The notes below the pieces were generated by a model. It was not told the origin of the DNA. It saw only the letters and a list, made by a program, of their open reading frames with translations, and did no database searches. The translations under genes were made by a program, and so were the position numbers. 64,000 bases of DNA from Candidatus Hemicellulosilyticus sp. P3 (lineage in GTDB: Bacteria; Bacteroidota; Bacteroidia; Bacteroidales; P3). Positions 1 through 63,706 of the stretch are shown here, piece after piece. Each line of letters opens with the position of its first letter. Within the stretch, counting starts at the first letter, position 1. The stretch lies in assembly GCA_001543385.1 (NCBI GenBank), contig LPNH01000005.1:17680-81679 (forward strand), read 5' to 3'.

Positions 1-1
1 A

Positions 2-1513: not shown

Positions 1514-1539
1514 TGAACTCTCGGCTTTAATATAGCAGA

Positions 1540-1576: not shown

Positions 1577-1651
1577 TCTATCCACAGCATTTAACAAACA
1601 TTCACTAATTGGACTTCCCCCATTTTATTGGTTCGCAAACGCATATGGGTT

Positions 1652-2464: not shown

Positions 2465-2482
2465 ATCAATTCTTTTTAATTG

Positions 2483-3013: not shown

Positions 3014-3060
3014 TGAGTCAGAACCTATAGCGGGGCATAAATCAAGTTTGCAATGCGCGA

Positions 3061-6812: not shown

Positions 6813-6915
6813 GGAATAATTTGGATTTTTGAATGATTAAATATATGATTGAGGACAATGCTTTTATAAAACTGATTGACTTACTGATATGACTGATACA
6901 TGAGACGGTCGACGG

Positions 6916-8289
6916 TTATTTGACGGCAGTGGATTGCAGGTAGTCATAAAGGAGCCGTATGCCATATCCTGAGGCACCGAAACCATAAGGAGACTGAGGC
7001 TTGCCGAAATAGGCGACACCGGCGATGTCGAGGTGGATATAAGGGGTTTGTCCGGCAAAACGGGCAAGGAATTTGCCGGCCGTAATGGTGCCGGCCTGTG
7101 CCGGACCGCAGTTTTTAAGGTCAGCAACGTCAGAGCGAAGCAATTCGTCGTACTCTTTCCAGAACGGCAACTCGGCAATGCGTTGATGGACAGCCTCGCC
7201 CACAGTTTTAAGGGTAGCCATAGGCCCCTCGGCGAACTGTTGCACCGCAGCGATGCCGAATGTGGAGATGGCCCGCACGGCGGCACCTGTCAAGGTGGCG
7301 GCGTCGATGAGCAGCGACGGCTGAAAGCGCTGAACCGCATAGGCGATGGCGTCGGCAAGGATGAGACGTCCCTCGGCGTCGGTGTTGATGATCTCGACGG
7401 TGGTGCCGTCATACATGGTCAATATATCGTCAGCGGCGTAGGCGTTGAAGCCCGGACGATTATCAGTGAGCGGCAGCACGGCTACAAGATGAACCGGCAA
7501 CCTGTTGTCGGCGGCGGCGAAGAGCACCGAAGCCATCGTGGCGGCGCCGGCCATGTCGCTCTTCATCTCCTGCATGTAATCGTCAGGTTTGATATTAAGG
7601 CCTCCGGTGTCGTACATCACTCCCTTGCCCACCAACACGACAGGCTTCGTCCGGTTGTTGCCGGCACCGTCGTATTCGAGCACCACCAAGCGGGGCTCGT
7701 CGACGCTGCCGCGGTTGACGCCCAAAAGGCCGCCCATGCCGAGCTTCTCAATGGCTTTTTTGTCATAGACCTCGCAAGATATTTTCATGTCCGAGGCAAC
7801 AGCCTGGAGTTCGTCGGCAAAACGGGTGGCGTTGAGGTCTGCCACAGGCAGGTTGACCCATTCGCGACACCAGAATATACGGTTCCAAAGATTGCGGTAT
7901 GTTTCCAGTTGCGCCGCGTTCAGCTTGCGCGACCGGATGTCGAGACGGGCGATATGAAACGGCTCTTTTGATTTATAGCGGTCGAAACTGTAATCGGCCA
8001 GTTGTATGCCCTCGACAAAGGCCAAAAGCAGCACGACATCGAGACCGACAGCATCGACCTGCAAGACGGCGTGTTTCTCGGCATGCGCCTGACGGCAAAG
8101 GTCGTAGGCGGCCCGACGCAAAGTCTCGCACAGTTCGCCTTGCGGCAAGGATGCATCGCAGTATACGTCGTAGCTGCGCCGCTCGGCGGAGCCCGACGGC
8201 ACCACACGGTAAGGGTCGTCCACCCCTTTGACGGGATGCAAGGCGATGGAGGCGGCTGTCTCGACAGGTTGATTCAGAGTAATATTCAT
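6916..8289 (-). CDS. pepA: Leucyl aminopeptidase (M17 family)
   Basis: It carries the M17 signature NTDAEGRLILAD and VGKGVMYDTGG. The start is set at the internal ATG (MNITLNQ, 8289) because the upstream part of the ORF overlaps the preceding ABC gene. Confidence 0.92.
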   Translation of the reverse strand: MNITLNQPVETAASIALHPVKGVDDPYRVVPSGSAERRSYDVYCDASLPQGELCETLRRAAYDLCRQAHAEKHAVLQVDAVGLDVVLLLAFVEGIQLADYSFDRYKSKEPFHIARLDIRSRKLNAAQLETYRNLWNRIFWCREWVNLPVADLNATRFADELQAVASDMKISCEVYDKKAIEKLGMGGLLGVNRGSVDEPRLVVLEYDGAGNNRTKPVVLVGKGVMYDTGGLNIKPDDYMQEMKSDMAGAATMASVLFAAADNRLPVHLVAVLPLTDNRPGFNAYAADDILTMYDGTTVEIINTDAEGRLILADAIAYAVQRFQPSLLIDAATLTGAAVRAISTFGIAAVQQFAEGPMATLKTVGEAVHQRIAELPFWKEYDELLRSDVADLKNCGPAQAGTITAGKFLARFAGQTPYIHLDIAGVAYFGKPQSPYGFGASGYGIRLLYDYLQSTAVK

Positions 8290-8291
8290 AG

Positions 8292-9899
8292 CTATATGTG
8301 TTGAATTAGAAAAATGAGTTTCTGTTGCTGCAACGTCGACACGATGGAGTCGAAATGCGCGCGCGCTGTAACATCCATCCATGCGGTGGGTTCATCAAGA
8401 ATGAGTATGGGGGCGTCGCTGTAGTACAGTCGCGCCAGCGCCACACGTTGCCACTGACCCATGCTCAGTTCCTCACCGCCGGTGTAGAGCCGTCCCAGCA
8501 TGGTGTCGTAACCATCGGGGAGCGATTCCAGGATATGCTCCACACCTGCCTGTCGGGCGGCCGAGACAACACGGTCGCGGCTGGGGGGCGCTGTGATGTC
8601 GCCGAAGGCGATATTGTCGGATGCCGTGAAATGGTAACGGACAAAATCTTGAAAGAGCACACCGATGTGGCGACGTAACTCCGTCAGGTCAAAACGGCGG
8701 ATGTCTATGCCGTTGATACAGACGACACCGTCGTCGGGGTCGTAGAATCGCATGAGCAGTTTCATCAACGTGGACTTGCCATAGCCGTTCTCGCCCTCGA
8801 TGTGACAGACGGTGCCGCGACGTGCCGTAAGTGAAAAGCGGGTGAGCACATCACGATCCATATCGGGATAACGAAATGAAACGTTGCGAAATTCAACGCA
8901 GTCAACCTGCTCGGGAAACGGCATGGGATCAGACGGTGACACAAGACGGGGTTCGAGCGCCAGAAACTCGAAGAGATTGCCTGCGAAGAGCCGGTTGTCA
9001 TAGAGACCCGCAACGCTGCGCACCAAAGACTGCAACGAGGACTGGCCGCGACGGAAAGCCTCGAAGAGCATCACAAACGAACCTACGGTGATGGCGCCTA
9101 CATAAGCCCGTTGCACAAAAAGCAAGAGGACGGACAGCAGCGCGGCCGACTCGACAGCGGCGCAGAGTGCATCGTACCATGCCAGACGTCGCGAGATGCG
9201 AAGCAGGCGCACCACCAAGCCGCGACGGATGTCGACATAGAGTCCTCGGATGTAGCCGCTCAGCCCGTATTGGCGCACCTCCTTGGCGAAATCGCGATGG
9301 GTGAGCAGTGCGGAATAATAGGCTGTACGACGGTAGACCTGCGTGTTGCCGCGACGGAAGGTGTAGATGCGACGCGCCTTGGCCAACCGCACAAAGAATG
9401 ACGGCAACACCGCCGCCACCATGAGCAATATCACCCAGCCCGACACGGCGCCGAGCAAGACAACGACACCGGCCAATGTGACAATCGAACCGAAAAGCGC
9501 CATGAAATTGTTCAACACCTCCAACGGACGATATGAAGACTCTTGCTGCGCCCGATGAAAAGTGTCGTGGAAAGCGGGGTTGTCGTAATAGGCCAGATCA
9601 AGCCGTGACGACTGACGCTGTATTCGATCACTGATGTAGTCGACAAGACGCTGTGACAAGATATCATTGTTGACTGAAGCGAGGGTGGACAGCAATCGTC
9701 CGAAGAAGAATATAGCGACATAGCAGACAACGTATAACGCTGTGTTGTGAAAATCGGAGAGGTTGTCCACCAACAGTTTGAGCACGTAGATGCCGGCCAA
9801 TGGCAAGAGGCTCTGAAGTACAACATAGACCACCCGCAGCCAAAAGGCCCTGCGGCTGCACTGATGCACCATGACAAGCATTTTCCAGAGGGTGGACAT
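8292..9899 (-). CDS. ABC exporter, fused permease/ATPase (MsbA-like), apparently lacking the region after the H-loop
   Basis: An N-terminal multi-TM domain is followed by Walker A GENGYGKST, signature LSMGQWQR and Walker B ILILDEPTAWMD. The ORF ends at ...FLIQHI, the H-loop position. Confidence 0.88.
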   Translation of the reverse strand: MSTLWKMLVMVHQCSRRAFWLRVVYVVLQSLLPLAGIYVLKLLVDNLSDFHNTALYVVCYVAIFFFGRLLSTLASVNNDILSQRLVDYISDRIQRQSSRLDLAYYDNPAFHDTFHRAQQESSYRPLEVLNNFMALFGSIVTLAGVVVLLGAVSGWVILLMVAAVLPSFFVRLAKARRIYTFRRGNTQVYRRTAYYSALLTHRDFAKEVRQYGLSGYIRGLYVDIRRGLVVRLLRISRRLAWYDALCAAVESAALLSVLLLFVQRAYVGAITVGSFVMLFEAFRRGQSSLQSLVRSVAGLYDNRLFAGNLFEFLALEPRLVSPSDPMPFPEQVDCVEFRNVSFRYPDMDRDVLTRFSLTARRGTVCHIEGENGYGKSTLMKLLMRFYDPDDGVVCINGIDIRRFDLTELRRHIGVLFQDFVRYHFTASDNIAFGDITAPPSRDRVVSAARQAGVEHILESLPDGYDTMLGRLYTGGEELSMGQWQRVALARLYYSDAPILILDEPTAWMDVTARAHFDSIVSTLQQQKLIFLIQHI

Positions 9900-52125: not shown

Positions 52126-53175
52126 ATGAGTCTTATTGACGACTACATATTAGAGAGGACATGCACCTATAAAGGAGAAACTTATAAAGTGCGGGATAAT
52201 GGTGCCGTGTACCGTCAACCAAGGCCGGAGGGTAGACTTCGGAAGGATGACGGCAAGTGGACGTTTGGAGAGAAGAACACAACGAATGGATATATGTACA
52301 TTGGTCAACACCGTGTGCATATTATCGTAGCAACAGCTTTCTATGGTGAGAACGATTCCAAAGTTTATGTCGTTGACCATATAGACACCAACCGTTGTAA
52401 TAATCGCGCAGAGAATTTGCGTTGGCTAACTCGTTTGGAAAACGCTTTGCTCAATGAAGACACCTGTAGAAAAATAACATACTTGTGTGGCGGTGACATC
52501 ATGAAGTTCATCAATAACCCATCCTGTTTGCACGACCTTGCCCAAGACCCTGACATCAGTTGGATGCGTACTGTGACAGCAGAAGAGGCAAAGACTGCTT
52601 ATGCCAGAGTGCAATCAATGAGAATCCAACAGCCAAGAAACATTCATTCAGAGCTGCACATAGAAAACGAAGATTTAAAGCGCAAGGAGCAAGCAGAAGC
52701 AATGGAGTGGTACCGCACACAGAACAATTGGCGTTTTACTGCACCAAAGCAACCCATATATAGTACACCTGATCCAGTTTTCACAAAAGCGGCATATCCA
52801 GAGACCGCTTTGCAGAAAGATTGGAAAACTCCAACAGAGTTCATATGTTGTCCCATAGAATCAACAGAAACTCCATTGCAAGATTATTACAACAATCTTA
52901 CAATTGGCAAACTCTTTTCACGGAACAAATACACAGAACATACAGTATTTGATTTTGCACTAATGGACAATGATAAGATATTAATCATTGCAACAAAAGA
53001 CTCAAATCCGAATGCAATAAAACACTTTGGCCTATTGAAGGTATATCATTCCGGCATTCAGTTTATTCATGAAAGCATAAGCACGTACTTTGAAGAAAAT
53101 GGTGTTAGAAAGTATTTCAATATTGAACAAGGGTTAGATTGGAATGGACCTAATAGTATTGACGATTATTGTTAA
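52126..53175 (+). CDS. HNH_3-type endonuclease domain protein with uncharacterised C-terminal extension
   Basis: HRVHIIVATAFYGENDSKVYVVDHIDTNRCNNRAENLRWLTRLEN matches the phage/homing HNH_3 pattern (H..v....VdHid.n..nN...NLrw.t..eN). Confidence 0.75.
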   Translation: MSLIDDYILERTCTYKGETYKVRDNGAVYRQPRPEGRLRKDDGKWTFGEKNTTNGYMYIGQHRVHIIVATAFYGENDSKVYVVDHIDTNRCNNRAENLRWLTRLENALLNEDTCRKITYLCGGDIMKFINNPSCLHDLAQDPDISWMRTVTAEEAKTAYARVQSMRIQQPRNIHSELHIENEDLKRKEQAEAMEWYRTQNNWRFTAPKQPIYSTPDPVFTKAAYPETALQKDWKTPTEFICCPIESTETPLQDYYNNLTIGKLFSRNKYTEHTVFDFALMDNDKILIIATKDSNPNAIKHFGLLKVYHSGIQFIHESISTYFEENGVRKYFNIEQGLDWNGPNSIDDYC

Positions 53176-53198
53176 ACAAAAATAGATAACTCACATAA

Positions 53199-53242
53199 AT
53201 ATTAATCCTTAAACTTTTATTAATTAAACTATTATGGCAAAA
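53199..53242 (+). repeat. Direct repeat DR-R (functional nifJ leader and first three codons)
   Basis: atattaatccttaaacttttattaattaaactattATGgcaaaa is the partner of 49869-49913. Confidence 0.65.
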
Positions 53243-56200
53243 GAAAAAAAGTTTATGACTTGTGACGGCAACTGCGCTGCGGCGCACGTTGCGTACATGT
53301 TCAGCGAGGTAGCAGCTATCTACCCCATCACCCCGTCCAGCCCTATGGCCGAGTATATCGACGAGTGGGCCGCCGGCGGTCGTAAGAACCTCTTCGGCGA
53401 GACCGTGAAGGTCGTCGAGATGCAGAGCGAGGCCGGTGCCGCCGGCGCCGTGCACGGCTCGTTGCAGGCCGGTGCGCTGACCACCACCTACACCGCTTCG
53501 CAGGGTCTGCTGCTGATGATCCCCAACATGTACAAGATCGCCGGCGAGCTGCTGCCCGGCGTGTTCCACGTGAGCGCCCGCGCCCTGGCCGCCCAGGCCC
53601 TCTCCATCTTCGGCGACCACGCCGACGTGATGAGCGCCCGCCAGACCGGCTTCGCCCTGCTGGCCGAGAGCTCGGTGCAGGAGGTGATGGACCTCGCCCC
53701 TGTGGCCCACCTCGCCGCCCTCAGCGGCCGCGTGCCGTTCCTCAACTTCTTCGACGGCTTCCGCACCAGCCACGAGATCCAGAAAATCGAGGCCTGGGAT
53801 ATGGAAGACCTGCGTCCGCTGGTGGACCAGAAGGCCCTGAAGGCTTTCCGCGAGAACGCCCTGAACCCCGAGCACAACGTGACCCGCGGCACCGCCCAGA
53901 ACAGCGATGTCTACTTCCAGACCCGCGAGCTGCAGAACAAGTACTACGACGCCCTGCCCGACATCGTGGCCAAGTATATGGCTGAGATCAGCAAGCTGAC
54001 GGGCCGCCAGTACGCCCCCTTCACCTACTATGGTGCCAAGGATGCCGAGCACGTCATCGTGGCTATGGGTTCGGTGACCGAGACCATCAAGACCGTGGTC
54101 GACTACCTCAACGCCCAGGGCAAGAAGACCGGCTGCGTGACCGTTCACCTGTACCGCCCCTTCAGCGTGAAGCACCTGATGGAGGCTATGCCCAAGAGCC
54201 TGATGGAGCACGTGAAGACCATCACCGTCCTCGACCGCACCAAGGAGCCCGGCGCCAACGGCGACCCGCTGTATATGGACATCGTCGAGGCCTTCAAGGA
54301 CTGCCCCTACAAGCCCACCATTCTCGGCGGCCGCTACGGTCTGTCGAGCAAGGACACCACCCCCGCCCAGATTATCAGCGTCTTCAACAACGCCGAGGGC
54401 GAGAAGAAGAACCAATTCACCATCGGCATCGTGGACGACGTGACCTTCCGCTCGCTGCCCCTGCTGCCCGAAATCAGCATCCTGCCCAAGGGCACCTTCG
54501 AGGCCCGCTTCTACGGCCTCGGCGCCGACGGCACGGTGGGTGCCAACAAGAACAGCATCAAGATTATCGGCGACAACACCGACAAGTACAGCCAGGCCTA
54601 CTTCGACTACGACTCGAAGAAGAGCGGCGGCTACACCTGCTCGCACCTGCGCTTCGGCGACAACCCCCTGCCGGCACCCTACCTGGTCGGCACGCCCGAC
54701 TTCGTGGCCGTCCACGTGCCCAGCTACCTGCGCAAATATGACTGCCTGCGCGGCCTGAAGGACAACGGCACCTTCCTCTACAACAGCCCCTGGACCGTCG
54801 AGGAGACCAAGGCCCAGCTGCCCGACTTCGTGAAGAAGTACCTGGCGCTGCACCACATCACGATGTACATCATCGACGCCACCAAGATTGCCGCTGAAAT
54901 CGGTCTCGGCAACCGCACCAACACCATCCTCCAAAGCGCCTTCTTCAAGATCAGCGAGGTGATTCCCTACGACCTCGCCGTCGAGCAGATGAAGAAATTC
55001 ATCGTCAAGAGCTACGGCCGCAAGGGTGAGGACGTGGTCAACAAGAACTACCAGGCCGTGGACCGCGGCGGCGAGATCGTGAAGATCGACATCCCCGCAG
55101 AGTGGGCCAACCTGCCTTGCAGCACCGACTTCGCCGTCGAGAAACACGAGGGCGACCCCGAGTTCATCGCCAAGGTGATGCGCCCGATGGTGGCCCAGAC
55201 CGGCAACGACCTGCCCGTGTCGGCATTCCTCGGCTACGAGGACGGCACCTTCCCCGCCGGCACCACCGCCTACGAGAAGCGCGGCGTGGCCACCGTCGTC
55301 CCCGAGTGGATCCCCGCCAACTGCATCCAGTGCAACCAGTGCTCGCTGGTGTGCCCCCACGCCGCCATCCGCCCCTGCGTGATGACCGACGAGGAGATGA
55401 AGAATGCCCCCGAGTCGATGAAGGCCATCGACATGAAGATGCCCAAGGAACTGGCCGGTATGCACTTCCGTATGCAGGTCAGCGCTATGGACTGCACCGG
55501 CTGCGGCAACTGCGCCGATGTTTGCCCCGCCAAGGAGAAAGCCCTCGTGATGAAACCCTTCGAGAGCCAGCTCCACGAGGCAGCCAACTGGGACTACGCC
55601 CAGAAGATGGTCACCTACAAGGACAACCTCATCGACAAGAAGGCCAACGTCAAGAACAGCCAGTTCGCACAGCCCCTGTTCGAGTTCAGCGGCGCCTGCG
55701 CCGGTTGCGGCGAGACCCCGTACCTCAAGTGCATCACCCAGCTCTTCGGCGAGCAGATGATGGTGGCCAACGCCACGGGCTGTTCCTCCATCTACGGCGG
55801 CTCGGCTCCTGCCACCCCCTATTGCAAGAACTACCGCAGCGGCTTCGGTCCCGCCTGGGCCAACTCGCTGTTTGAAGACAACGCCGAGTTCGGTCTCGGC
55901 ATGGCCACCGCCACCCGCCAGATGCGCGACCGCGTGGAGCGCATTATGAAGGAAGGCCTCGGCTGCGACTGCTGCAGCGCCGAAATCAAGGCCCTCTTCA
56001 CCGAGTGGATCGAGAACCGCGAGAACACCCTCAAGACCAAGGAAATCGCCGACAAGCTCATCCCGCTGATGGAAGCCTGCGGCTGCGACATCTGCAAGCA
56101 GCTCCTCGAACTCCGCCACAGCCTCGTCAAGAAGAGCCAGTGGATCTTCGGCGGCGACGGCTGGGGCTATGACATCGGATTCGGCGGTCTGGACCACGTG

Positions 56201-56782
56201 CTGGCCAGCGGCGAGGATGTCAACGTCGTCGTCGTCGACACCGAGGTGTACTCCAACACCGGCGGACAGAGCTCGAAGGCCACCCCGGCCGGTGCTGTCG
56301 CCAAGTTCGCCACCAGCGGCAAGAAGATCCGCAAGAAAGACCTCGGTATGATCGCCAAGAGCTACGGCTACGTCTATGTGGCGCAGGTGGCTATGGGCGC
56401 CAGCCAGGCCCAGTACTTCAACGTCATCAAGGAGGCCGAGGCCTACCACGGACCGTCGCTCATCATCTGCTACGCACCCTGCATCAACCACGGTATCAAG
56501 ATCGGTATGGGCCGCACGCAGAACGAGGAGAAGAAGGCCGTCGAGTGCGGCTACTGGCACCTCTGGCACTACAACCCTGCTGAGGAAGAGGCCGGCAAAA
56601 ATGGCTTCCACCTCGACTCGAAGGAGCCCGACTGGAGCAAGTTCCGCGACTTCATTATGGGCGAGGTCCGCTACAACTCGCTGATGAAGACCTTCCCCCA
56701 GGAGGCCGAAGAGCTCTTCGTCGCCACGGAGCGCAACGCCAAGCTGCGCTATGAGGGCTACAAGAAACTCTCCGAGATGTAA
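53234..56782 (+). CDS. nifJ: Pyruvate:ferredoxin (flavodoxin) oxidoreductase
   Basis: It is 1182 aa. It has an N-terminal CDGNCAAAHVAY, two ferredoxin-type clusters (CIQCNQCSLVCPH, CTGCGNCADVCP), and the TPP-binding GGDGWGYDIGFGGLDHV. Confidence 0.98.
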   Translation: MAKEKKFMTCDGNCAAAHVAYMFSEVAAIYPITPSSPMAEYIDEWAAGGRKNLFGETVKVVEMQSEAGAAGAVHGSLQAGALTTTYTASQGLLLMIPNMYKIAGELLPGVFHVSARALAAQALSIFGDHADVMSARQTGFALLAESSVQEVMDLAPVAHLAALSGRVPFLNFFDGFRTSHEIQKIEAWDMEDLRPLVDQKALKAFRENALNPEHNVTRGTAQNSDVYFQTRELQNKYYDALPDIVAKYMAEISKLTGRQYAPFTYYGAKDAEHVIVAMGSVTETIKTVVDYLNAQGKKTGCVTVHLYRPFSVKHLMEAMPKSLMEHVKTITVLDRTKEPGANGDPLYMDIVEAFKDCPYKPTILGGRYGLSSKDTTPAQIISVFNNAEGEKKNQFTIGIVDDVTFRSLPLLPEISILPKGTFEARFYGLGADGTVGANKNSIKIIGDNTDKYSQAYFDYDSKKSGGYTCSHLRFGDNPLPAPYLVGTPDFVAVHVPSYLRKYDCLRGLKDNGTFLYNSPWTVEETKAQLPDFVKKYLALHHITMYIIDATKIAAEIGLGNRTNTILQSAFFKISEVIPYDLAVEQMKKFIVKSYGRKGEDVVNKNYQAVDRGGEIVKIDIPAEWANLPCSTDFAVEKHEGDPEFIAKVMRPMVAQTGNDLPVSAFLGYEDGTFPAGTTAYEKRGVATVVPEWIPANCIQCNQCSLVCPHAAIRPCVMTDEEMKNAPESMKAIDMKMPKELAGMHFRMQVSAMDCTGCGNCADVCPAKEKALVMKPFESQLHEAANWDYAQKMVTYKDNLIDKKANVKNSQFAQPLFEFSGACAGCGETPYLKCITQLFGEQMMVANATGCSSIYGGSAPATPYCKNYRSGFGPAWANSLFEDNAEFGLGMATATRQMRDRVERIMKEGLGCDCCSAEIKALFTEWIENRENTLKTKEIADKLIPLMEACGCDICKQLLELRHSLVKKSQWIFGGDGWGYDIGFGGLDHVLASGEDVNVVVVDTEVYSNTGGQSSKATPAGAVAKFATSGKKIRKKDLGMIAKSYGYVYVAQVAMGASQAQYFNVIKEAEAYHGPSLIICYAPCINHGIKIGMGRTQNEEKKAVECGYWHLWHYNPAEEEAGKNGFHLDSKEPDWSKFRDFIMGEVRYNSLMKTFPQEAEELFVATERNAKLRYEGYKKLSEM

Positions 56783-56803
56783 TCTAATATAGATTGCAAA
56801 CCC

Positions 56804-56835
56804 AAGTTGTGGAGGTCGAGAGGCCTCCACAACTT
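56804..56835 (+). terminator. Terminator hairpin after nifJ
   Basis: A 12-bp stem aagttgtggagg / cctccacaactt lies 22 nt after the stop codon. Confidence 0.6.
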
Positions 56836-56852
56836 CAAAGAAAGAATATAAC

Positions 56853-57935
56853 ATGACACTACTTAATAATAAATGCACCCCAATTCAACTGGATTTGTTC
56901 CAATTGCAAAAACAATATCCAGATACTATTGTCAAGAAAAACGACCTTGATGATAGTTATGATGATTTAGATTTGTCTAAAAATGTATTGGTGTGCAACG
57001 TCAAGAAAGATAATGTAGAACATTTCTTGGACGGCTCTGCCAAGATTTATTATACCGGCTTACGTTTTCCTTCATCTGTAGCTCTCAATAAGCTATACTA
57101 TTTTATCCCCTATATCGGCAAGAAATGCGACCTTGACTACTGCGGCATCCGAGACTTGTACATTATCAAAATTGCCCGTATCGGTTCACGTCGAGAGGGT
57201 GAACTTGATAATGACCCCAACGATTTACGCTTGGTTTTTGAGTTAAAGTTTGTAAAACATTTATTTAATGAATATAAACCAATAAAATTACAGATTTACC
57301 AGACATTCACCGATACAACACTTGAGCAGTTACTAGAAAATCAGAAAACAAAGACCAAACTATTGCCCAATCATTTAACATATATAAGCCTTTTTAGTAG
57401 TGCAGGTGTGGGGTGTTATGGCTTCAAGCAAGAAAACTATTCGTGCATTGCCACCGTTGAACTCATTGAGCGTCGTCTCAACGTACAGAAGTACAATCAT
57501 AAATGCACGTTCAATAGCGGATATATCTGTGGTGACATAACCCTTGCCGAAACACAGAACCGAGTGTTTCAAGAATTACAAATGTGGAGGCGAACCAGTG
57601 GGTTAACCGAGGTTGATGTGCTGATAGCAACGCCACCTTGTCAAGGAATGTCTGTTGCTAACCACAAGAAAGGCGATGAACTAAAACGCAACTCCCTCGT
57701 AGTAGAATCCATTAAACTTATACGAGATATTAACCCGCGTTTTTTTATTTTCGAGAACGTACCTGCTTTTCTTAAATCCATCTGTACAGATATTGATGGT
57801 ATTGACAAACCTATTGGAGAGGCCATAGAATTAGATCTTTTAATTTCCCCCATCCAACTGAAAACCGCCCCCATCCCTAAAATCTTCAAAAAATCAGCTT
57901 TCCACGTGTTACTTTTTCACTGTTTTTGCAACTAA
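56853..57935 (+). pseudogene. Truncated DNA (cytosine-5)-methyltransferase with an uncharacterised ~170-aa N-terminal domain
   Basis: Motif I (LFSSAGVGCYGF), motif IV (TPPCQGMS) and motif VI (FIFENVPAF) are present. Motif VIII, the TRD, and motifs IX/X are absent. The reading frame runs into repeat R1 and stops inside it. Confidence 0.7.
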
Positions 57936-57951
57936 TTATATAGAGGGCGAC
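57863..57951 (+). promoter_or_regulatory. Repeat element R1 (core 57906-57951; TGCAAC-N15-CGAC at 57927-57951)
   Basis: The core GTGTTACTTTTTCACTGTTTTTGCAACTAATTATATAGAGGGCGAC is near-identical to 59554-59600 and 62564-62610. The upstream part AACCGCCCCCATCCCTA matches 59453-59469. Confidence 0.55.
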
Positions 57952-58087
57952 CCTATAGAGGACATCCCCACCACACCGTGATTTTGCACTTGGAGTAATA
58001 ACATTAGACGGAACCAAACAGACAATAATCTAAATGTTTTATTTGAATTATTTAATTAATTAAAATAAACAACAATAAAAAAAGATT

Positions 58088-58684
58088 ATGTCAGACAAAC
58101 CTAAAACAGAAATCAAAGTAGAACGTGTTAATACTACATATAGTTGGTATTGGGCTGTAGTATGGTATGATGCAGACGGCAATGAAATTGGCTACTGCTA
58201 TGGATATGAAAATTCAAAGCGTGAAGCAAAAAAAGAAGCGAAGGAAGCCTCAAAGGGAGACCCTTGTTATCCGGAGCAAAAGAAAGGGGCTGTAAAAGCA
58301 GACCCCACAGTATCGGCGAAAATCCACATCCAGCCGCCTCACATCGATGCAAAAATAATAAACGGTCACTTGGCTTACTTCTCCATGGAGAATCCCCAAG
58401 GGAAAAGAGTCGTGTTCTCCACACGCGACATGTCAGAAAACACTGCATTCTGGGTGTTCGGCATGGATTGCTATGATCCGGAACTTTCGACAAAAGCGGA
58501 ACTTGTTGCTGCAATGCTAAAAATTTGGGGTGTTTATGTACATGGTGAAGAGTCGGAGAAAGAACTGAAAAGAATTCATCAGTTATCTGACGAACACTTC
58601 GCCATTATTGCAGAAAAAAGGTGGAATCATATAACCATTGAATGCTATGAAGACGGCTCGTTTAACTGGTCTTTTATTGATTAG
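58088..58684 (+). CDS. Hypothetical protein (first gene of unit 1)
   Basis: A 198-aa ORF, 137 nt downstream of R1. No recognisable family. Confidence 0.6.
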   Translation: MSDKPKTEIKVERVNTTYSWYWAVVWYDADGNEIGYCYGYENSKREAKKEAKEASKGDPCYPEQKKGAVKADPTVSAKIHIQPPHIDAKIINGHLAYFSMENPQGKRVVFSTRDMSENTAFWVFGMDCYDPELSTKAELVAAMLKIWGVYVHGEESEKELKRIHQLSDEHFAIIAEKRWNHITIECYEDGSFNWSFID

Positions 58685-59240
58685 TTTCATTCTTCTGGGA
58701 TATTCTGGACGGACAGTCGCCCAGAATATCCCCAATATGATTAAATTGGATAAAACCGGGGTTTATATCGACAAAACGGCAGTGTCCATAAGAGGGTGGC
58801 ATGAGTATGTCTGGTACATGTACAAAACCTACGGTATGGATTCCGAACAGTTCCTCTCTACAAAGTGCGACAGCGCAGTTTTTCAGAATCACTACAACCA
58901 TGTTTTCCTATACCCTTATACCCAAGGAATGGGGAAAATTGAAAAGTATGGTTTTTCGAGCGGCGACATAAACTTCATGAACGAAGAATATGGCAAACAC
59001 CCGATGGTCGGCCTGTCGTATGAGCAATGCGTGGCATTTTGCAACTGGCGGACGGAGATGTATAATAAAGTCCACAAGAAGAAACTTCGGTTCCGAATGC
59101 CAACGTCCGAAGAATTGCGTAAAGCGTCAGGGTTACGTCGAGTAAAGATGTCAGACAATGGAAATGGCGAGATTGCTTCAGATGCCACCGTGACGGAACT
59201 AGGAACATTCCGTTGTGTTGCAACATTATTATCGGAATAA
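58647..59240 (+). CDS. Secreted protein with partial FGE-sulfatase/SUMF1-like domain
   Basis: It has a signal peptide (MKTARLTGLLLISFILLGYSG). HPMVGLSYEQCVAFCNWRTEMY...FRMPTSEELRKA resembles the P.v.VsW.dA.aFC.W...yRLPTEaEWe core of SUMF1/EgtB/PvdO-family domains. It overlaps the preceding gene by 38 nt. Confidence 0.45.
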   Translation: MKTARLTGLLLISFILLGYSGRTVAQNIPNMIKLDKTGVYIDKTAVSIRGWHEYVWYMYKTYGMDSEQFLSTKCDSAVFQNHYNHVFLYPYTQGMGKIEKYGFSSGDINFMNEEYGKHPMVGLSYEQCVAFCNWRTEMYNKVHKKKLRFRMPTSEELRKASGLRRVKMSDNGNGEIASDATVTELGTFRCVATLLSE

Positions 59241-59377
59241 GTATATTCAACATTGATTGAAACGGACGCTCGCTTGTCGAGTCGAAACCTCGACAAAAAA
59301 GCATTGAAACAGCCACACATTCAAATCAAGCAGATTATCAACCCCGATACGAAAAAAAACCATCCTCTTCACCATCA

Positions 59378-59411
59378 CGGCAAGCGTCACCCACGTTTGC
59401 CGTTTTTTTTT
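59378..59411 (+). terminator. Rho-independent terminator ending unit 1
   Basis: A 10-bp stem cggcaagcgt/acgtttgccg (one G-U pair) with a 5-nt loop, followed by T9. An A8 run upstream makes it potentially bidirectional. Confidence 0.65.
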
Positions 59412-59452
59412 AAGGAGTCTTTTGTAGGCGCATCGCTCGCTGAGGGCTCACT

Positions 59453-59600
59453 AACCGCCACCATCCCTATACCCCATCCTTGAAAAACACAACACAACGC
59501 AAATACCTAACGATCAGTTATTAAAAAACTTCCGCAAAATATTTTCAATTTCCGTGTTACTTTTTCACTGTTTTTGCAACTAATTATTATAGAGGGCGAT
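59453..59600 (+). promoter_or_regulatory. Repeat element R2 (core 59554-59600; TGCAAC-N16-CGAT at 59575-59600)
   Basis: The core GTGTTACTTTTTCACTGTTTTTGCAACTAATTATTATAGAGGGCGAT lies 61 nt upstream of ATG 59661. Confidence 0.55.
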
Positions 59601-59660
59601 TAAAGTGGTACCATAATAAAAAGCTTCTTTGGAAAAAAATAACACTAAAAAAACAAAAAA

Positions 59661-59876
59661 ATGGAATACGCAATTGAAACTTTCAATGAACAAAACTTGG
59701 GCAGAATTTCAATAACTGCTAGAAAACCATCCGAAATGTCTGAAATAGAAATAATCAATGACATTGACAAATTAGATGGTCAGTGTGTGTCAAAGACACA
59801 CTATAAAGACACCACGGGTGCATATCGTGAAGATATCAAAATTGGCTGTGTGACGATAAAAATCAATAACTATTAA
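59661..59876 (+). CDS. Small protein, candidate RiPP precursor/structural peptide
   Basis: A 71-aa ORF, first gene after R2. Its C-terminal third (CVSKTHYKDTTGAYREDIKIGCV) is rich in Thr/Lys/Asp/Glu and has two Cys. It is immediately followed by a perfect 15-bp hairpin. Confidence 0.5.
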   Translation: MEYAIETFNEQNLGRISITARKPSEMSEIEIINDIDKLDGQCVSKTHYKDTTGAYREDIKIGCVTIKINNY

Positions 59877-59918
59877 ATTGAGGCCAAAGCCTTTGTTGGC
59901 TTTGGCCTCAATTTTTAG
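59877..59918 (+). terminator. Perfect 15-bp hairpin plus T-run (intra-operon attenuator/terminator)
   Basis: attgaggccaaagcc-tttgtt-ggctttggcctcaat-tttt starts 1 nt after the stop of the 71-aa ORF. Confidence 0.7.
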
Positions 59919-59922
59919 TATT

Positions 59923-60570
59923 ATGTTAACACTTTTATTTTTGGGTTCATTCTTTTTTGCCTATACTGAACAAACTGTTTATTCAGCATCAACGGAATAT
60001 GTGTTCTCCATTGAATACCATGACGACGACACAACTTACTCGTCATTTATTAGTATGTGGACGGATTTGAATTCCTGGGAGAATCAGTCTAATCAAAAAA
60101 CATTATATTATCATTATCATGCGGACTCTACAACTATCGGGATATGGCCAATTACAGCTCATGAAACAACAGGTATAATAGAAACATCTGCTAAAATCTG
60201 GTTACACCCTCCCAGAAGTGGGCATCTTGAGATATTAGAATACTTTCCATTTCCGGAAATAAAGAAGGCCACCAATAAAAAAAGATTCTATAGATATTTT
60301 ATTGGGAATTGTGATTTTCTTAACAAATGGGTATGGCTAAAATACAGAATGGTCTTATCCGATGCTATGGAAAAAATATATTGGGGACAAAAAAACATTC
60401 CCGTAAAAACACTACAAGGAAAAGCAAGAACGAAAGAGGGAGAATGGAGCGTACTCTATTATTACAACGAACAAATGGGATTTGTATATTGGCATTATAA
60501 CTATTGTGACAAAATAATAATCAAATTAAAACTGGAAAAAATAATTCCGCATGATCTTAATTCTTTCTGA
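59923..60570 (+). CDS. Hypothetical single-pass membrane protein
   Basis: It has an N-terminal TM segment (MLTLLFLGSFFFAY). The start is moved to ATG 59923 because codons 1-15 of the ORF-track entry (TTG 59878) are the translated hairpin. Confidence 0.6.
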   Translation: MLTLLFLGSFFFAYTEQTVYSASTEYVFSIEYHDDDTTYSSFISMWTDLNSWENQSNQKTLYYHYHADSTTIGIWPITAHETTGIIETSAKIWLHPPRSGHLEILEYFPFPEIKKATNKKRFYRYFIGNCDFLNKWVWLKYRMVLSDAMEKIYWGQKNIPVKTLQGKARTKEGEWSVLYYYNEQMGFVYWHYNYCDKIIIKLKLEKIIPHDLNSF

Positions 60571-61462
60571 GACATCCGATATTCCCACCATCAAATTAGT
60601 CACGCTGATGAAAAGCCATCATGTTGATTACCGCATAATCTACGCAGACGAACTTACGGACGTAAAATGGGATTTATTAAATGATAATTTGAGAGTAAAT
60701 AATATTGACGTTTTGTCCTGTAAATCCGTTTGGTTCCGCAGACCATGTTTCGATTCGTATATTCATTTGGTGAGTGGTGACTTGATTTCTGATTTCACAA
60801 AACATCTAATACAAGAAAAAAAAGTGTTGTTTGACGCAATTCTTTCCAAAATATTTGATGTTTGTCCCAAACATATAGGGAATCCTCTATTTCAAAATAC
60901 AAATAAATTAGATGTTTTACAGAAAGCAAAAAAGTGTGGATTTCAAATTCCAGAAACAATTATTACAACAAACAAGAAAACACTTGCGAATAAACCTTAT
61001 GTTTCCAAACCGATAAGTGAGGTCTTTGTGAGAGATATTGATGGATGTTTATGTTATTCATACACCGAAAACATTAAACTTTCTGAAGTTCAACAGAAAT
61101 TTCATTATGCATTATTCCAAGAAAAAATAAAAAAAGAATTCGAATGTAAGGCGATTTTCTTGAATGGTAAAACATATGCAATGGCCATGGTACCTCAAAC
61201 AGCGGAATCAATGACAGACATTAGAAATTATTCTCTGGGCAGTATGGTAATGTATAGTCCTGTTTCTTTGTCAAAACCCATTTGTATCAAACTCGAAGAA
61301 CTCTTTGGTTGTCTTAATTTAAACTTTGGAATAGTAGACTTAATTATTGATGAAACCACGTGTTATTTTACTGAGATAAATCCAATTGGGCAATTTGACG
61401 ATATTGTTCAATGTGGAAACTATCCTGTTTATGACGAAATATTGAAATATCTTGAATCATGA
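60551..61462 (+). CDS. ATP-grasp ribosomal peptide maturase-like protein
   Basis: MILILSETSD...WFRR..., NKLDVLQKAKKCGFQIPETII, FQEKIKKEFECKAIFLNGKTYAM, DIRNY and LNFGIVDLIIDETTCYFTEINPIGQF follow the pattern of RiPP ATP-grasp ligases (..fGsiDli....yyFlEvNP.GQf). Confidence 0.8.
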   Translation: MILILSETSDIPTIKLVTLMKSHHVDYRIIYADELTDVKWDLLNDNLRVNNIDVLSCKSVWFRRPCFDSYIHLVSGDLISDFTKHLIQEKKVLFDAILSKIFDVCPKHIGNPLFQNTNKLDVLQKAKKCGFQIPETIITTNKKTLANKPYVSKPISEVFVRDIDGCLCYSYTENIKLSEVQQKFHYALFQEKIKKEFECKAIFLNGKTYAMAMVPQTAESMTDIRNYSLGSMVMYSPVSLSKPICIKLEELFGCLNLNFGIVDLIIDETTCYFTEINPIGQFDDIVQCGNYPVYDEILKYLES

Positions 61463-61593
61463 AGAATTTGCTTCTAAAAAAGAATTTATTGAGAGAAAAA
61501 GGAATTCCCATATATATGAAAAAAATGCGAATAATAGAAACCTCATATAAATTTATCCCTACATATTTTTACAAAGCAGTAAAAAAGTACTAA
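61459..61593 (+). CDS. 44-aa small ORF translationally coupled to both neighbours (speculative)
   Basis: Its ATG overlaps the ATP-grasp stop (tcATGA) and its TAA overlaps the next ATG (TAATG). The peptide is MKNLLLKKNLLREKGIPIYMKKMRIIETSYKFIPTYFYKAVKKY. It was not in the ORF track because it is under 60 aa. Confidence 0.3.
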   Translation: MKNLLLKKNLLREKGIPIYMKKMRIIETSYKFIPTYFYKAVKKY

Positions 61594-62462
61594 TGAATTC
61601 CATTCCGTTCACTAACAATAAAATTGTAACTGGAATTAGTCGCAGTATTGTTATTGATTTCAGCAATCATTCATACAGATTTATCAACGAGAAGAATAAT
61701 CCTCCGATAAAGGAAACAGAGTCCGCGTTTAAAGAGTCACAATTTGTTTCTCCGTACAAGATTGAACTAAGAGATTATCTGTCGGGGGCATACAGCTGTA
61801 TAATAGATATTAAACAAGCATTCTTTCATAATGAAACTGACATTTACAAACTTATTTGCAAAATGCCCATTAATTCCGTGCAACTACGTTGGCGTAGCAA
61901 TTACGACATAAAACCATTCTTGGATCGCTTATATAAAGCACATTCGATATTAAACATAGAATTGGTCACGGACTCTTATTCGAATAAAGTTGCAAAATTG
62001 TTATGTAAATTTCCGTTTCACTCCATTACACTTTTGGGGGAGAAAAAAAACGTCTTCAATGAATATATACCAAGACTGAATTATAATCCGTTTGAAGAAA
62101 ATAGACAAACTTTATCGTTTTACTTTAATTTACAATACTATATTGAAGCACATCATACTAACCCCTATTTTTTTCATAAAATCTACAAAGATGACGAGGG
62201 TAATATTTATAATTCACCAGAAACAAAGGAAATAATCGCAAGCGTATGTGAACCGATAGAGGACATTAGGAAGAAAATTTTATTTTATTATGCTCATACA
62301 CCTACGAGGTTTCCCCAAAATAAAATAAACATATGCCGACATTGTGAATTTAGGTATTCTTGTATGGACAATCGAATTCCTGTAAATAAAAAAGGAACAA
62401 TACAATACATAGAAGAGTGTTATTATAATCCATATACTATGCAATGGTTTGGAGGGAAGTAG
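61593..62462 (+). CDS. SPASM-type Cys-rich domain peptide-maturase-like protein lacking a radical-SAM CxxxCxxC motif
   Basis: The C-terminus INICRHCEFRYSCMDNR...ECYYNPYTMQW carries CxxCx5C plus a distal Cys, as in SPASM/twitch domains. The N-terminus (NNKIVTGISRSIVIDFSNHSYRFI) is of the type seen in ATP-grasp-associated SPASM proteins. No CxxxCxxC occurs anywhere. Confidence 0.72.
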   Translation: MNSIPFTNNKIVTGISRSIVIDFSNHSYRFINEKNNPPIKETESAFKESQFVSPYKIELRDYLSGAYSCIIDIKQAFFHNETDIYKLICKMPINSVQLRWRSNYDIKPFLDRLYKAHSILNIELVTDSYSNKVAKLLCKFPFHSITLLGEKKNVFNEYIPRLNYNPFEENRQTLSFYFNLQYYIEAHHTNPYFFHKIYKDDEGNIYNSPETKEIIASVCEPIEDIRKKILFYYAHTPTRFPQNKINICRHCEFRYSCMDNRIPVNKKGTIQYIEECYYNPYTMQWFGGK

Positions 62463-62550
62463 AAGTGTATATGATAATATTGACTTTAACTTTTGTTTGT
62501 TCAAGACTAAATAAAAAAGATAACATTAATATTTCCTTTTATTGACATGT

Positions 62551-62610
62551 ATTTTCAATTTTCGTGTTACTTTTTCGTTGTTTTTGCAACTAATTATTAT
62601 AGTGGGCGAC
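62551..62610 (+). promoter_or_regulatory. Repeat element R3 (core 62564-62610; TGCAAC-N16-CGAC at 62585-62610), upstream of the ECF sigma gene
   Basis: The core GTGTTACTTTTTCGTTGTTTTTGCAACTAATTATTATAGTGGGCGAC lies 124 nt upstream of ATG 62734. Confidence 0.55.
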
Positions 62611-62733
62611 CAAAGATGAGCCAACTATCCGACAGGAGGGCGACCGAAGAGGAGCCAATGTTGAGCAATCCGCCGGGTCGCCGCCCCAAAAACAGAAAGG
62701 ACTAATGATGGACTAAAGGCTGACACAACCTGA

Positions 62734-63240
62734 ATGAAAGTAGACGCGCGCCAACATACTGGATTCCTGAAGATGCTCCGCGAGTGCGAGGGCACCCTGA
62801 TAAAGGTATGTCTCTACTTCACCAACCGCCGCCGCGACGACTTCCGCGACCTCTACCAGGAAATCGCCTGCACCCTCTGGAAGGCGTGGCCTACCTTCCG
62901 CGGCGAAAGCGACCTCAACACATGGGTCACGCGTATCGCTCTCAACGTCTCCGGTCAGGAAATCCGCAAGCGGAAACGGCTGCCGCAGTTCGTGGAACTC
63001 GACGAATCCTTCTACGACATCCTCGCCGACGAAGCCACCGACCTATGCTACCATCGCCTCTACGACCTCATCGACCGCCTCGATGACGACGGCGAACGGA
63101 AACTGCTCTTCCTCTACCTCGACCGAAAACGCCTCCGAGAAATCGCCGAGATAACAGGCTCCACCGAAACAGCAGTGAAACAGAAACTCTACCGCATAAA
63201 ACAAAAGTTAAACGACCTCAAAACAGCAGAAGATGACTAA
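62734..63240 (+). CDS. ECF-type RNA polymerase sigma-70 family factor
   Basis: It has region 2 (DLYQEIACTLWKAWPTFRGESDLNTWVTRIALN) and a region 4 HTH (LREIAEITGSTETAVKQKLYRIKQKL). The length is 168 aa. Confidence 0.9.
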   Translation: MKVDARQHTGFLKMLRECEGTLIKVCLYFTNRRRDDFRDLYQEIACTLWKAWPTFRGESDLNTWVTRIALNVSGQEIRKRKRLPQFVELDESFYDILADEATDLCYHRLYDLIDRLDDDGERKLLFLYLDRKRLREIAEITGSTETAVKQKLYRIKQKLNDLKTAEDD

Positions 63241-63706
63241 TAAATCCATTCAAAAAGTCAATAAAGTGTCGCCCCCTAAAAGGGAGGTGAACACCACTGA
63301 AGAAAAATTAAATAAAATGAATACTACACGACCTCTCAGTTTGCCTGACACGCAGGGGAACGGCCTGCGACCTTGTGGAACTAACACCAAACTAAGCGCA
63401 GCGCAGTGTGGTGAAGAAGACAATAACACAATAACACTATCACACATTGACGCATTCGAGGAAGACGATATCTTCTCTGAACTCCGGTCCCTCTGGGACG
63501 AGCAGACCCGCCACATCGACCACATCCTCGCCACCCACCCCGAGGCTTATCCCGTCCGTCTCAACCTCCGTCACCGCCGCCCCTGGCGTCGCCTCATCAT
63601 GGCCGAATACCTCATCCTCGCCCTCCTCAACATCGCGGCCGGCATCTATACCCTCTTCGCCTTCCCTTCTTTCCCGACTATTACATTTCAAACCAATATT
63701 TCATAA
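63233..63706 (+). CDS. Small membrane protein co-transcribed with the ECF sigma (anti-sigma candidate)
   Basis: Its start overlaps the sigma stop (ATGACTAA). It has a single C-terminal TM helix (LIMAEYLILALLNIAAGIYTLFAF). The true start is uncertain; an internal ATG gives MNTTRPL. Confidence 0.5.
   Translation: MTNKSIQKVNKVSPPKREVNTTEEKLNKMNTTRPLSLPDTQGNGLRPCGTNTKLSAAQCGEEDNNTITLSHIDAFEEDDIFSELRSLWDEQTRHIDHILATHPEAYPVRLNLRHRRPWRRLIMAEYLILALLNIAAGIYTLFAFPSFPTITFQTNIS

Follow-up and report, generated by a model that had tools for sequence, protein, structure and literature searches.

We describe here a five-gene cassette of Candidatus Hemicellulosilyticus sp. P3, which lies in a stretch of 64,000 nucleotides (hereafter the window; assembly GCA_001543385.1, contig LPNH01000005.1, positions 17,680 to 81,679) and which we interpret as a divergent biosynthetic locus of the grasp-with-SPASM type, i.e., as a system producing a graspetide, a class of peptides that are made by the ribosome and modified after translation (RiPPs). 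All its genes are on the forward strand. The first is an open reading frame (ORF) of 71 codons (59661 to 59876) that, judging from its position, conservation and residue content, probably encodes the precursor peptide. It is followed by a hairpin resembling an intrinsic terminator (59875 to 59914), by a gene for a 215-aa protein predicted to be an exported accessory (59923 to 60570), by a gene for a 303-aa ATP-grasp peptide maturase that is a divergent relative of GwsG (60551 to 61462), by a coupled small ORF of 44 codons that resembles the LPL family in position and motifs (61459 to 61593), and by a gene for a 289-aa GwsS-like protein (61593 to 62462). A preliminary description of this DNA had placed all these elements at or near the same positions. 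The genes are tightly packed: the 215-aa and ATP-grasp genes overlap by 20 nt, the ATP-grasp stop codon and the start of the 44-aa ORF share an ATGA, and the end of the latter and the start of the 289-aa gene share a TAATG. We place the start of the 215-aa gene at the ATG at 59923; a mechanical listing of ORFs begins it earlier, at a TTG at 59878, inside the hairpin. A protein identical to the ATP-grasp enzyme (KWW41871.1) is encoded in another assembly (GCA_001543485.1, contig LPNF01000005.1).

The two enzymes carry the family assignment. The best NCBIfam model of the ATP-grasp protein is TIGR04192, matched over its full length (8e-46, 156.8 bits); it also matches PF02655 and, secondarily, the MvdC, SAV_5884 and MvdD maturase models (accessions, in numerical order, TIGR04184, TIGR04185 and TIGR04187). 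In an alignment of 15 sequences it keeps all the residues that are invariant in the family, namely K119, K153, Q190, E198, D223, D263, E275 and N277. The only NCBIfam match of the 289-aa protein is TIGR04193 (2e-11, 43.9 bits), restricted to profile positions 108-332. Hence, the best models of the pair are those of the grasp-with-SPASM system, and the preliminary description was right to see here a graspetide-like RiPP cluster, with a RiPP ATP-grasp ligase at 60551-61462 and a SPASM-like cysteine cluster in the protein encoded at 61593-62462. The order of the genes agrees: ATP-grasp, small ORF and partner follow each other in the window, in most of 79 loci from reference genomes and in metagenomic loci. 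In the window, 131 nt separate the two enzyme genes and are filled by the 44-aa ORF; in the related loci this distance is typically of ~100-230 nt, and most of them have an ORF of 40-95 aa there.

This architecture is the one published for "branch 5" of the ATP-grasp ligases, which comprises 190 loci and is specific to Bacteroidetes (Makarova et al. 2022, PMC8939145); the window locus is absent from the supplementary tables of that study. It also agrees with graspetide group 14, which always co-occurs with a SPASM-domain protein and was left uncharacterised by the 2026 survey of the Mitchell laboratory (PMC13097080). The genes have been named gwsG and gwsS in integrative and conjugative elements (ICEs) of Porphyromonas gingivalis, where a propeptide gene of 222 bp lies upstream (bioRxiv 10.64898/2026.08.04.741601). 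Like these systems, the cassette is confined to Bacteroidota, has the order precursor, ATP-grasp, LPL-type ORF and SPASM partner, lacks the radical-SAM motif in the partner, and has a precursor gene of ~220 bp at its 5' end. The grasp-with-SPASM loci make up one of the largest groups of graspetides: at least 530 of the 600 stretches listed in our scan of reference genomes encode a relative of the window ATP-grasp protein. The latter is a divergent homolog and, by the curated threshold, falls outside the equivalog. Outside its own clade, the best match among those listed is only 34% identical, in a search covering one genome for each of 185,579 species. When compared with the ligases of microviridin (MvdC/MvdD), plesiocin and thuringinin, the enzyme is a homologous ATP-grasp maturase expected to catalyse the same kind of reaction, the macrocyclisation of a ribosomal peptide by side-chain esters or amides. 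It differs from them in that its putative leader lacks a recognition motif of the PFFARFL or KPYxxxYxE type and in that the ligase is strictly linked to two extra proteins, the LPL-like and the GwsS-like ones.

The cassette is not restricted to a single genome. A second lineage (P0002), represented by 21 contigs and with an ATP-grasp protein 72% identical to that of the window, has the same five genes with the same order, the same overlaps and the same hairpin core, and it also has the gene for an extracytoplasmic function (ECF) sigma factor directly 3' of the cassette. The repetition of the five genes in this arrangement is more than expected by chance, and the small ORFs are thus conserved beside a homologous enzyme pair. 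We computed identities and dN/dS ratios between the window and the loci L002/L004 of this lineage, which are at saturated or near-saturated synonymous distance. The 71-aa ORF is by far the most constrained gene (96% amino acid identity, dN/dS 0.027, with 18 synonymous and 3 non-synonymous changes), followed by the 44-aa ORF (66%, 0.108), the ATP-grasp gene (72%, 0.116) and the 215-aa gene (66%, 0.17). The GwsS-like protein evolves fastest (57% identity), and its synonymous distance is saturated, precluding the computation of the ratio. All five ORFs are intact, with their overlaps kept, and these values show that they are real protein-coding genes under purifying selection. The 73-aa calls that suggested a disruption of the 215-aa gene in L002, L003, L005 and L006 were an artefact of gene calling, and the DNA there is intact. 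One could imagine that the cassette is the decaying remnant of a horizontal transfer and has no current function, given that it lies in a low-GC island beside a truncated dcm-like gene, is absent from close relatives and is devoid of an exporter. The intact reading frames, the overlaps conserved in two diverged lineages and the dN/dS ratios of 0.03-0.17 make such a decay extremely improbable.

What does the SPASM partner do? The complete SPASM motif has seven cysteines (CX9-15GX4C...CX2CX5CX3C...C) and two auxiliary clusters (Aux I and Aux II). Among the 69 partner proteins that we surveyed, 47 are of this full type and 20 are of a reduced type with only CX2CX5C and the last cysteine; the latter include the window protein, P0020, P0021 and the best-scoring relatives of the window protein. 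The reduced type falls outside the reach of the curated profile, since all its tested members score 46-160 bits with TIGR04193, below the cut-off, and the full-type members score 226-314. The window protein retains C248, C251, C257 and C276, whereas the first two cysteines of the motif and the fourth one of its central part are replaced. It has no match to TIGR04085 or PF13186; the full-type relatives do match TIGR04085. The four retained cysteines are invariant in alignments of 45 and 46 sequences, as are E252, D259, K196 and Y278 across the 46. In anSME, C317, C320, C326 and C348 ligate the Aux II cluster (PMC5715301), and the four cysteines of the window protein correspond to these positions. 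The radical-SAM motif CxxxCxxC is missing throughout the window ORF, as had been noticed before, but its absence is no peculiarity of this locus, as the preliminary description had suggested: none of the 69 partner proteins has it. A protein without a site for the S-adenosylmethionine (SAM) cluster and without the Aux I site cannot be expected to perform radical-SAM chemistry, and it would carry at most one [4Fe-4S] cluster, at the site equivalent to Aux II.

The predicted structure of the partner points to its ancestry. The AlphaFold2 model (mean predicted local distance difference test [pLDDT] 83.2, predicted template modeling score [pTM] 0.78) has three N-terminal strands (residues 9-13, 18-22 and 27-31) and one helix (38-48), followed by four to five beta/alpha units and by the cysteine-rich domain. 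About 35 residues of the N terminus of the canonical members are missing, and this part may be a truncated, RRE-like form of the winged helix-turn-helix of PqqD-like RiPP recognition elements (RREs), which has three strands and three helices. A search of the PDB sequences with a profile of the GwsS family returned nothing significant. The closest solved folds, those of SuiB (5v1q) and SkfB (6efn), have, like PqqE/PqqD, the same order of domains and the CX2CX5C...C motif; the window protein differs from them in lacking CxxxCxxC, and with it the SAM cluster, in lacking the Aux I ligands, and in being shorter (289 residues versus 380-440). It also resembles the Twitch domain, which is likewise derived from SPASM and expected from prediction to bind one auxiliary cluster, and of which it is the converse: Twitch lacks CX2CX5CX3C and keeps Aux I (PMC5715301), whereas the window protein keeps the Aux II ligands and loses those of Aux I. 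We infer from the predicted fold that GwsS descends from a maturase with an RRE, a radical-SAM domain and a SPASM domain, and that it can no longer cleave SAM. The most economical reading, by analogy, would be that it became a peptide-binding partner of the ligase. Rosaritide offers a case of the same kind, since its ATP-grasp synthetase MirB needs a strictly co-occurring partner that is not a ligase, MirC; this partner is a protein with a PpiC-type chaperone domain, unrelated to GwsS or LPL (Carter et al. 2026, PMC13097080).

Alternatively, GwsS could still be a catalyst that uses a single Fe-S cluster independently of SAM, for example in oxidative chemistry on the precursor cysteines C42 and C63. 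The invariance of the Aux II-type cysteines and of E252, D259, K196 and Y278 would fit such an activity, as would the two conserved cysteines of the putative core, conserved cysteines being common in branch-5 precursors (PMC8939145), and the purifying selection on GwsS, even if it is the fastest-evolving protein of the set. But the radical-SAM motif is missing family-wide, and the partner of a Phocaeicola-type locus is kept next to its ATP-grasp gene in many contigs in spite of lacking the CX2CX5C cysteines. Nor are we aware of any SPASM domain that catalyses a reaction independently of SAM. A catalytic GwsS thus seems unlikely to us, if still worth keeping in mind, and we favor the peptide-binding role. 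The widespread Phocaeicola-type loci (L013-L015, partner gene at 7203-8111) show a third cysteine pattern, in which the C...GNIKNC pair is kept, the CX2CX5C...C set is missing and no complete Fe-S site is predicted. This makes the need for an Fe-S cluster uncertain.

The 44-aa ORF would also belong to the recognition of the substrate. In most related loci that we examined, a small ORF of 40-95 aa lies between the ATP-grasp gene and that of the partner, and these ORFs share an N-proximal motif [L/I]P[L/I/V]x[F/Y] and a C-terminal motif [F/Y]YKxI. The window peptide has GIPIYMKKM in the first position (compare KLPITYKKM and VLPVFYKKL) and YFYKAV in the second (compare FYKNIE and FYKPIS). The gap ORFs of the related loci agree with the published alignment of the "LPL family," which was described between the enzyme genes and proposed to be a PqqD-like chaperone (Makarova et al. 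2022, PMC8939145). By position and motifs the 44-aa ORF appears to be the equivalent of this accessory protein, i.e., of a proposed chaperone of the precursor or of a recognition peptide acting in trans, which makes it an unlikely substrate. The preliminary description had regarded the small ORF as an addition made by this locus, a view that does not hold given its presence in most loci and the earlier description of the family. We discarded a regular expression combining the two motifs as too crude: it matched 6 of 36 canonical members and the L002 peptide and missed that of the window.

The best candidate for the substrate is the 71-aa ORF. It is the first gene of the unit, a place held by precursors with a double-glycine (GG) leader in the related loci. 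It has an acidic and hydrophobic leader-like segment (SEMSEIEIINDIDKLDGQ) that ends in ...DKLDGQ, with a spacing of hydrophobic and acidic residues like that of a double-glycine leader, yet with GQ at its end. Its last 30 residues (CVSKTHYKDTTGAYREDIKIGCVTIKINNY) are rich in Thr, Ser, Lys, Asp and Glu and include two cysteines, C42 and C63. Two of the three substitutions between the lineages (T51S and T52M) are in this part. The preliminary description could not tell which ORF is the substrate; position, motifs and conservation now narrow the choice, with the 71-aa ORF as the probable precursor and the 44-aa ORF as an accessory.

The precursor could nevertheless be elsewhere in the genome, or be the 44-aa ORF, and the 71-aa ORF might encode a regulatory, immunity or structural protein instead. 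A GG leader is missing from the 71-aa peptide, which is also dissimilar from the known precursors: we found no match to the Pfam/NCBIfam precursor models (PF14406, TIGR04139 and TIGR04149) at E <= 0.1, phmmer searches with the 71-aa and 44-aa peptides returned no matches among the ORFs of 84 other loci, and the scan of metagenome contigs for the 71-aa peptide gave 427 pattern matches, 0 of which were confirmed. Its 96% conservation over the full length, next to enzymes at 57-72%, is also not what one expects of precursors of branch 5, which are hypervariable even between close relatives, although conserved cysteines are common in them; loci without any precursor nearby were noted in the same work (Makarova et al. 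2022, PMC8939145). The C terminus of the 44-aa ORF, for its part, carries Thr, Tyr and Lys. We regard this alternative as improbable. The 71-aa ORF occupies the precursor position, and in all five loci with a relative of the 215-aa protein GG-leader peptides lie upstream of the ATP-grasp gene; a hairpin typical of precursor genes lies directly 3' of it; and its last 30 residues offer Thr, Ser and Lys donors together with Asp and Glu acceptors. The conserved C-terminal half of the 44-aa ORF, by contrast, has no acidic residue, and its position and motifs are those of LPL. We thus keep the 71-aa ORF as the probable substrate.

The hairpin that follows the precursor gene has a perfect stem of 17 bp, a loop of 6 nt and a T-run. 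It is very stable (RNA dG -32.9 kcal/mol, z = -9.1), and none of 200 shuffled sequences folds as well. The core of the stem, of 12 bp, is kept in L001-L004, including the 72%-identical relative, with no compensatory changes there that could test it. The preliminary description had an attenuator after the small ORF, and the feature is indeed present. Its sequence suggests that it likely adjusts the ratio of precursor to enzymes, either as a terminator that leaks or as a stabiliser. A scan of 56-64 kb with Rfam (E <= 1) gave only two matches, both at chance level, one of them between the hairpin and a miRNA model.

The 215-aa protein had been described as a membrane protein and as a further addition of this locus. 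Both points need correction. The AlphaFold2 model (pLDDT 92.6, pTM 0.87) has one N-terminal hydrophobic helix followed by an all-beta domain, an open beta-barrel resembling YmcC and LolA. Its top Foldseek matches, all with probability 1.00, are 3fzx (BF2203 of Bacteroides fragilis, an exported YmcC-like protein), 4fvs (a Parabacteroides lipoprotein), 2in5 (YmcC) and LolA. The model thus predicts, in place of a polytopic membrane protein, an exported beta-barrel whose single hydrophobic helix would be a signal or an anchor. The family has 208 relatives in the representative library, corresponds to no Pfam family, and is marked by the motif T..HPPR...ILEYxPFP, in which T83, H95-P96-P97-R98 and P109-F110-P111 are nearly invariant. 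Five other loci have a member of the family: in L018, L027 and L044 its gene is directly upstream of that of the ATP-grasp protein, in L035 it is close upstream, and in L020 it is downstream. In view of the signal peptide and the conserved His/Arg, we considered whether it could be the "cluster 23" protein of Makarova et al. and ruled this out, as the alignment of that cluster has IDQ.LR and no HPPR and corresponds to DUF6624-like proteins. The latter are found in 41 of 84 loci (the L016-L094 set) and not in the window. They do not co-occur with the barrel (0 of 5 barrel loci; hypergeometric p ~0.03), so the two families may be interchangeable exported accessories. DUF6624-like and C39-ABC genes are frequent, but not universal, features of the related loci, and the window differs from the common architecture in having neither the "cluster 23" protein nor the C39-ABC/HlyD export genes and in having the YmcC/LolA-like barrel. 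An ORF of 535 aa (8292-9899), the only one of the window that resembles a C39-ABC exporter, was considered as such and rejected: it is 50 kb away, too short for the N-terminal C39 domain of the 754-aa query, and probably an unrelated ABC protein.

The cassette also differs from the common architecture in its location, within the region that holds the promoter of an ECF sigma operon. An element of ~50-65 nt with the core GTGTTACTTTTTcnnnnTTTTTGCAACTAATTAT(T)ATAGAGGGCGA occurs three times in the window, on the forward strand, and nowhere else in it, with 0 copies expected by chance. In order, the copies head a second low-GC cassette (57892 to 57957), the graspetide cassette (59540 to 59605, a promoter-like sequence that forms the left direct repeat) and the ECF operon (62550 to 62615, the right direct repeat, native to the operon and 91% identical to the second copy). 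The operon encodes an ECF-type sigma-70 factor of 168 aa (62734 to 63240; TIGR02937 at 2.6e-21, Sigma70_r2 and Sigma70_r4_2), of host-like composition (56% GC), and an ORF of 157 aa (63233 to 63706) that overlaps the sigma stop codon and has a hydrophobic C-terminal segment. The latter has no family match in Pfam or NCBIfam and is a putative anti-sigma factor. In the second lineage the element is found in the same two places, and it lies upstream of the 71-aa gene in the relatives L001-L006. A scan of metagenome contigs gave 33 further instances; the consensus was built from 30 instances. In 16 contigs, none with graspetide genes, the element stands 28-151 nt upstream of a gene for an orthologous sigma factor (56-75% identical), accompanied in 13 of them by an ortholog of the 157-aa ORF. 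In several other contigs it precedes genes for signal-peptide proteins. Six contigs (L096, L098, L102, L105, L115 and L116) have a variant (...GCAACTAATATTATAAGAGG) ~190-200 nt upstream of genes for large signal-peptide proteins (~690-920 aa in complete ORFs) that start with MNRKRIILLLTLCVAFTLAAQGQ and are possible further members of the regulon.

Two loci reveal how the cassette sits in this region. In L111 and L125 the upstream flank of L001 (~90% identity) is joined straight to the ECF operon (~94%) by a single hybrid element, and exactly the ~2.9-kb cassette is lacking. Together with the direct repeats, these empty sites define the cassette as a dispensable unit bracketed by copies of the ECF operon's own element. 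That the bracketing element is native to the operon suggests that the cassette is probably co-regulated with the sigma and anti-sigma genes. The putative ECF control of the preliminary description is clearly strengthened by a shared cis element, as expected of a member of the ECF regulon, with the copies at 59540 and 62550 and those of the 16 contigs with sigma orthologs; the dependence on the sigma factor itself would follow from this arrangement only by inference. The element could instead be mainly a site of recombination or integration, or a generic strong promoter whose adjacency to the sigma gene has no regulatory meaning. The breakpoints between occupied and empty alleles lie inside the element, the window has two tandem cassettes each under a copy of it, and most instances contain TAtTTTTG, which fits the housekeeping -7 consensus of Bacteroidetes (TAnnTTTG). 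Yet neither the island nor its borders have a gene for an integrase or a recombinase, and the empty sites could just as well have arisen if two copies of a promoter underwent homologous recombination. Furthermore, the element is at promoter distance from the start codons of ECF sigma genes in 16 contigs and precedes unrelated genes for secreted proteins elsewhere, which is the pattern of an autoregulated ECF regulon. We thus hold this alternative to be rather improbable and retain co-regulation with the ECF operon.

The surroundings of the cassette are unusual in composition. The host genome has a GC content of ~55%, and the gene for pyruvate:ferredoxin oxidoreductase just 5' of the island has ~62%. 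Between 56.8 and 62.6 kb this falls to 30-45%, with 30-35% in the graspetide cassette, 32% over its whole ~3-kb block, and 24-34% in its five genes. The island (56800-62620) consists of two tandem cassettes, each under a copy of the ~50-65-nt element and both directly 5' of the ECF operon. The one that is not the graspetide cassette encodes a 198-aa protein without family match (58088-58684) and a 200-aa protein with a partial FGE-sulfatase/GldK-like domain and an N-terminal hydrophobic segment (58638-59240), and it ends in a terminator-like hairpin with a T9 run (59377-59403), all on the forward strand. Neither the list of ORFs nor the Pfam/NCBIfam scans reveal an integrase or a transposase within the island, and the 64-kb window has no tRNA genes. 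An ORF of 360 aa (56853-57935) matches only the first ~115 positions of the models of C-5 cytosine DNA methylases (PF00145 and TIGR00675); its frame runs into the first copy of the element, and it looks like a dcm-type gene truncated by the insertion of a cassette. The minus-strand ORF of 1242 aa at 53150-56878 is antisense to the gene for the 1182-aa pyruvate:ferredoxin oxidoreductase (53234-56782); it is not a real gene but one of the shadow ORFs typical of genes with a high GC content. The 72%-identical cassette has at least two upstream contexts, with an HTH_3 gene and a gene for 159 aa or with genes for 1098 and 869 aa (L004 versus L001-L003), which indicates that the region 5' of the cassette is itself variable. 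The closest outgroup of the window ATP-grasp protein (33% identity) is in a complete grasp-with-SPASM cluster (positions 1-8729) of a 50-kb contig (L011; JGI 3300070205, Ga0612031_0348). This contig also encodes Phage_T4_gp13 and DUF5661 proteins, and the system there may thus be phage-borne. A scan of viral contigs with the ATP-grasp alignment found only two weak relatives.

Taken together, we give a probability of roughly 0.6 to the reading of this region as a functional, divergent grasp-with-SPASM graspetide cassette (group 14, branch 5). Several points weigh against it. Both enzymes score below the curated cut-offs, at 156.8 bits against 230 for TIGR04192, where canonical members reach 275-309, and at 43.9 bits against 175 for TIGR04193. 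This accounts for the names under which they were deposited, "RimK-like protein" and "hypothetical protein." The only Foldseek hits of the partner model below E = 0.01 are SkfB (E 5.6e-4) and SuiB (E 2.1e-3), with probabilities of 0.99 and 0.97 but low TM-scores (0.35-0.38), and no Pfam model of PqqD or the RRE matches its N terminus even at E <= 10. Its four "invariant" cysteines are dispensed with in the Phocaeicola-type partner (L013). A hidden Markov model (HMM) of 36 gap ORFs ranks the 44-aa peptides of L002 and the window as the top two of 805 ORFs, but with E values of 0.035 and 0.75 that are not statistically significant. The 71-aa peptide, besides lacking a GG leader and any similarity to the precursor families of Pfam/NCBIfam or of the 84 loci, has an unexplained N-terminal extension of 25 residues and is conserved along its whole length, unlike the typical hypervariable precursors of branch 5. 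The cassette and its vicinity are devoid of a C39-peptidase/ABC exporter and of any other protease, in contrast to the 36 of the 84 other loci with a C39-ABC gene, and this leaves export and leader removal unexplained. The element may be a housekeeping-type promoter with an operator rather than an ECF-dependent one. Finally, we found no characterised product or enzyme of the grasp-with-SPASM group in the literature that could be searched, and the pairing is still, as the preliminary description put it, named but chemically uncharacterised.

These elements allow us to propose a mechanism. The homologies, the order of the genes, their purifying selection, the pattern of cysteines, the folds predicted for the proteins, the repeats and the empty sites are what we observed; the chemistry, the part played by each accessory, the activity of the promoter and its dependence on the sigma factor are what the proposal adds. 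Transcription probably starts at the element at 59540-59605, with the 71-aa precursor as the first gene. The hairpin probably acts as a leaky terminator, so that precursor mRNA would exceed enzyme mRNA, and read-through would allow the expression of the four translationally coupled or overlapping genes that follow. In the C-terminal ~30 residues of this peptide (THYKD[T/S]xGAYRED...), the ATP-grasp ligase would then form omega-ester and/or omega-amide links from Thr, Ser or Lys to Asp or Glu. Recognition and presentation of the substrate would fall to the LPL-like peptide of 44 aa and to the GwsS-like protein, the latter most likely a partner of the ligase that binds the peptide and contains an Fe-S cluster. 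The YmcC/LolA-like barrel could act outside the cytoplasm, for example as a carrier, a receptor or an immunity protein for the product.

Some traits of the cassette that seemed particular to it, namely the SPASM protein devoid of radical-SAM motif, the small ORF and the extra protein, are already traits of the family. What is new is the divergence of the enzymes, with both scores under the cut-offs, a partner of four cysteines with a shortened N-terminal domain that represents a subtype keeping Aux II only, a precursor that lacks the GG leader and is nearly invariant instead of hypervariable, the LolA/YmcC-like accessory, and the location of the cassette under a copy of the element of an ECF operon. 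It is a minimal version of the system, with one near-invariant candidate substrate, four accessory genes and no exporter within 3 kb, which makes it a convenient target for reconstitution. One may go further and suppose that the GwsS-type proteins are pseudoenzymes derived from radical-SAM enzymes, in which the SAM cluster is gone from the whole family and Aux I from ~30% of the members, and that with LPL they form a substrate-presentation module needed by the ligase, in a three-protein recognition with the leader element provided in trans. The product, nearly invariant, would be made under the command of an ECF sigma factor for envelope stress, and outside the cytoplasm the barrel would handle it. 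This extended scenario is speculative, and we doubt that it is right in all its parts. If it were, one would be dealing with a regulated peptide of physiological or signalling function, or with an inhibitor of proteases, instead of a hypervariable weapon. For the family, our analysis corrects a common assumption, since the "SPASM family radical SAM enzyme" of such clusters lacks the radical-SAM motif in every member examined. It also reveals a sizeable subgroup of partners in which the Aux II-type site alone is kept and whose scores lie under the curated threshold of NCBIfam. For the rumen Bacteroidales, the occupied and empty alleles and the shared cis element connect a RiPP cassette with the regulon of an ECF sigma factor in a way that can be tested.

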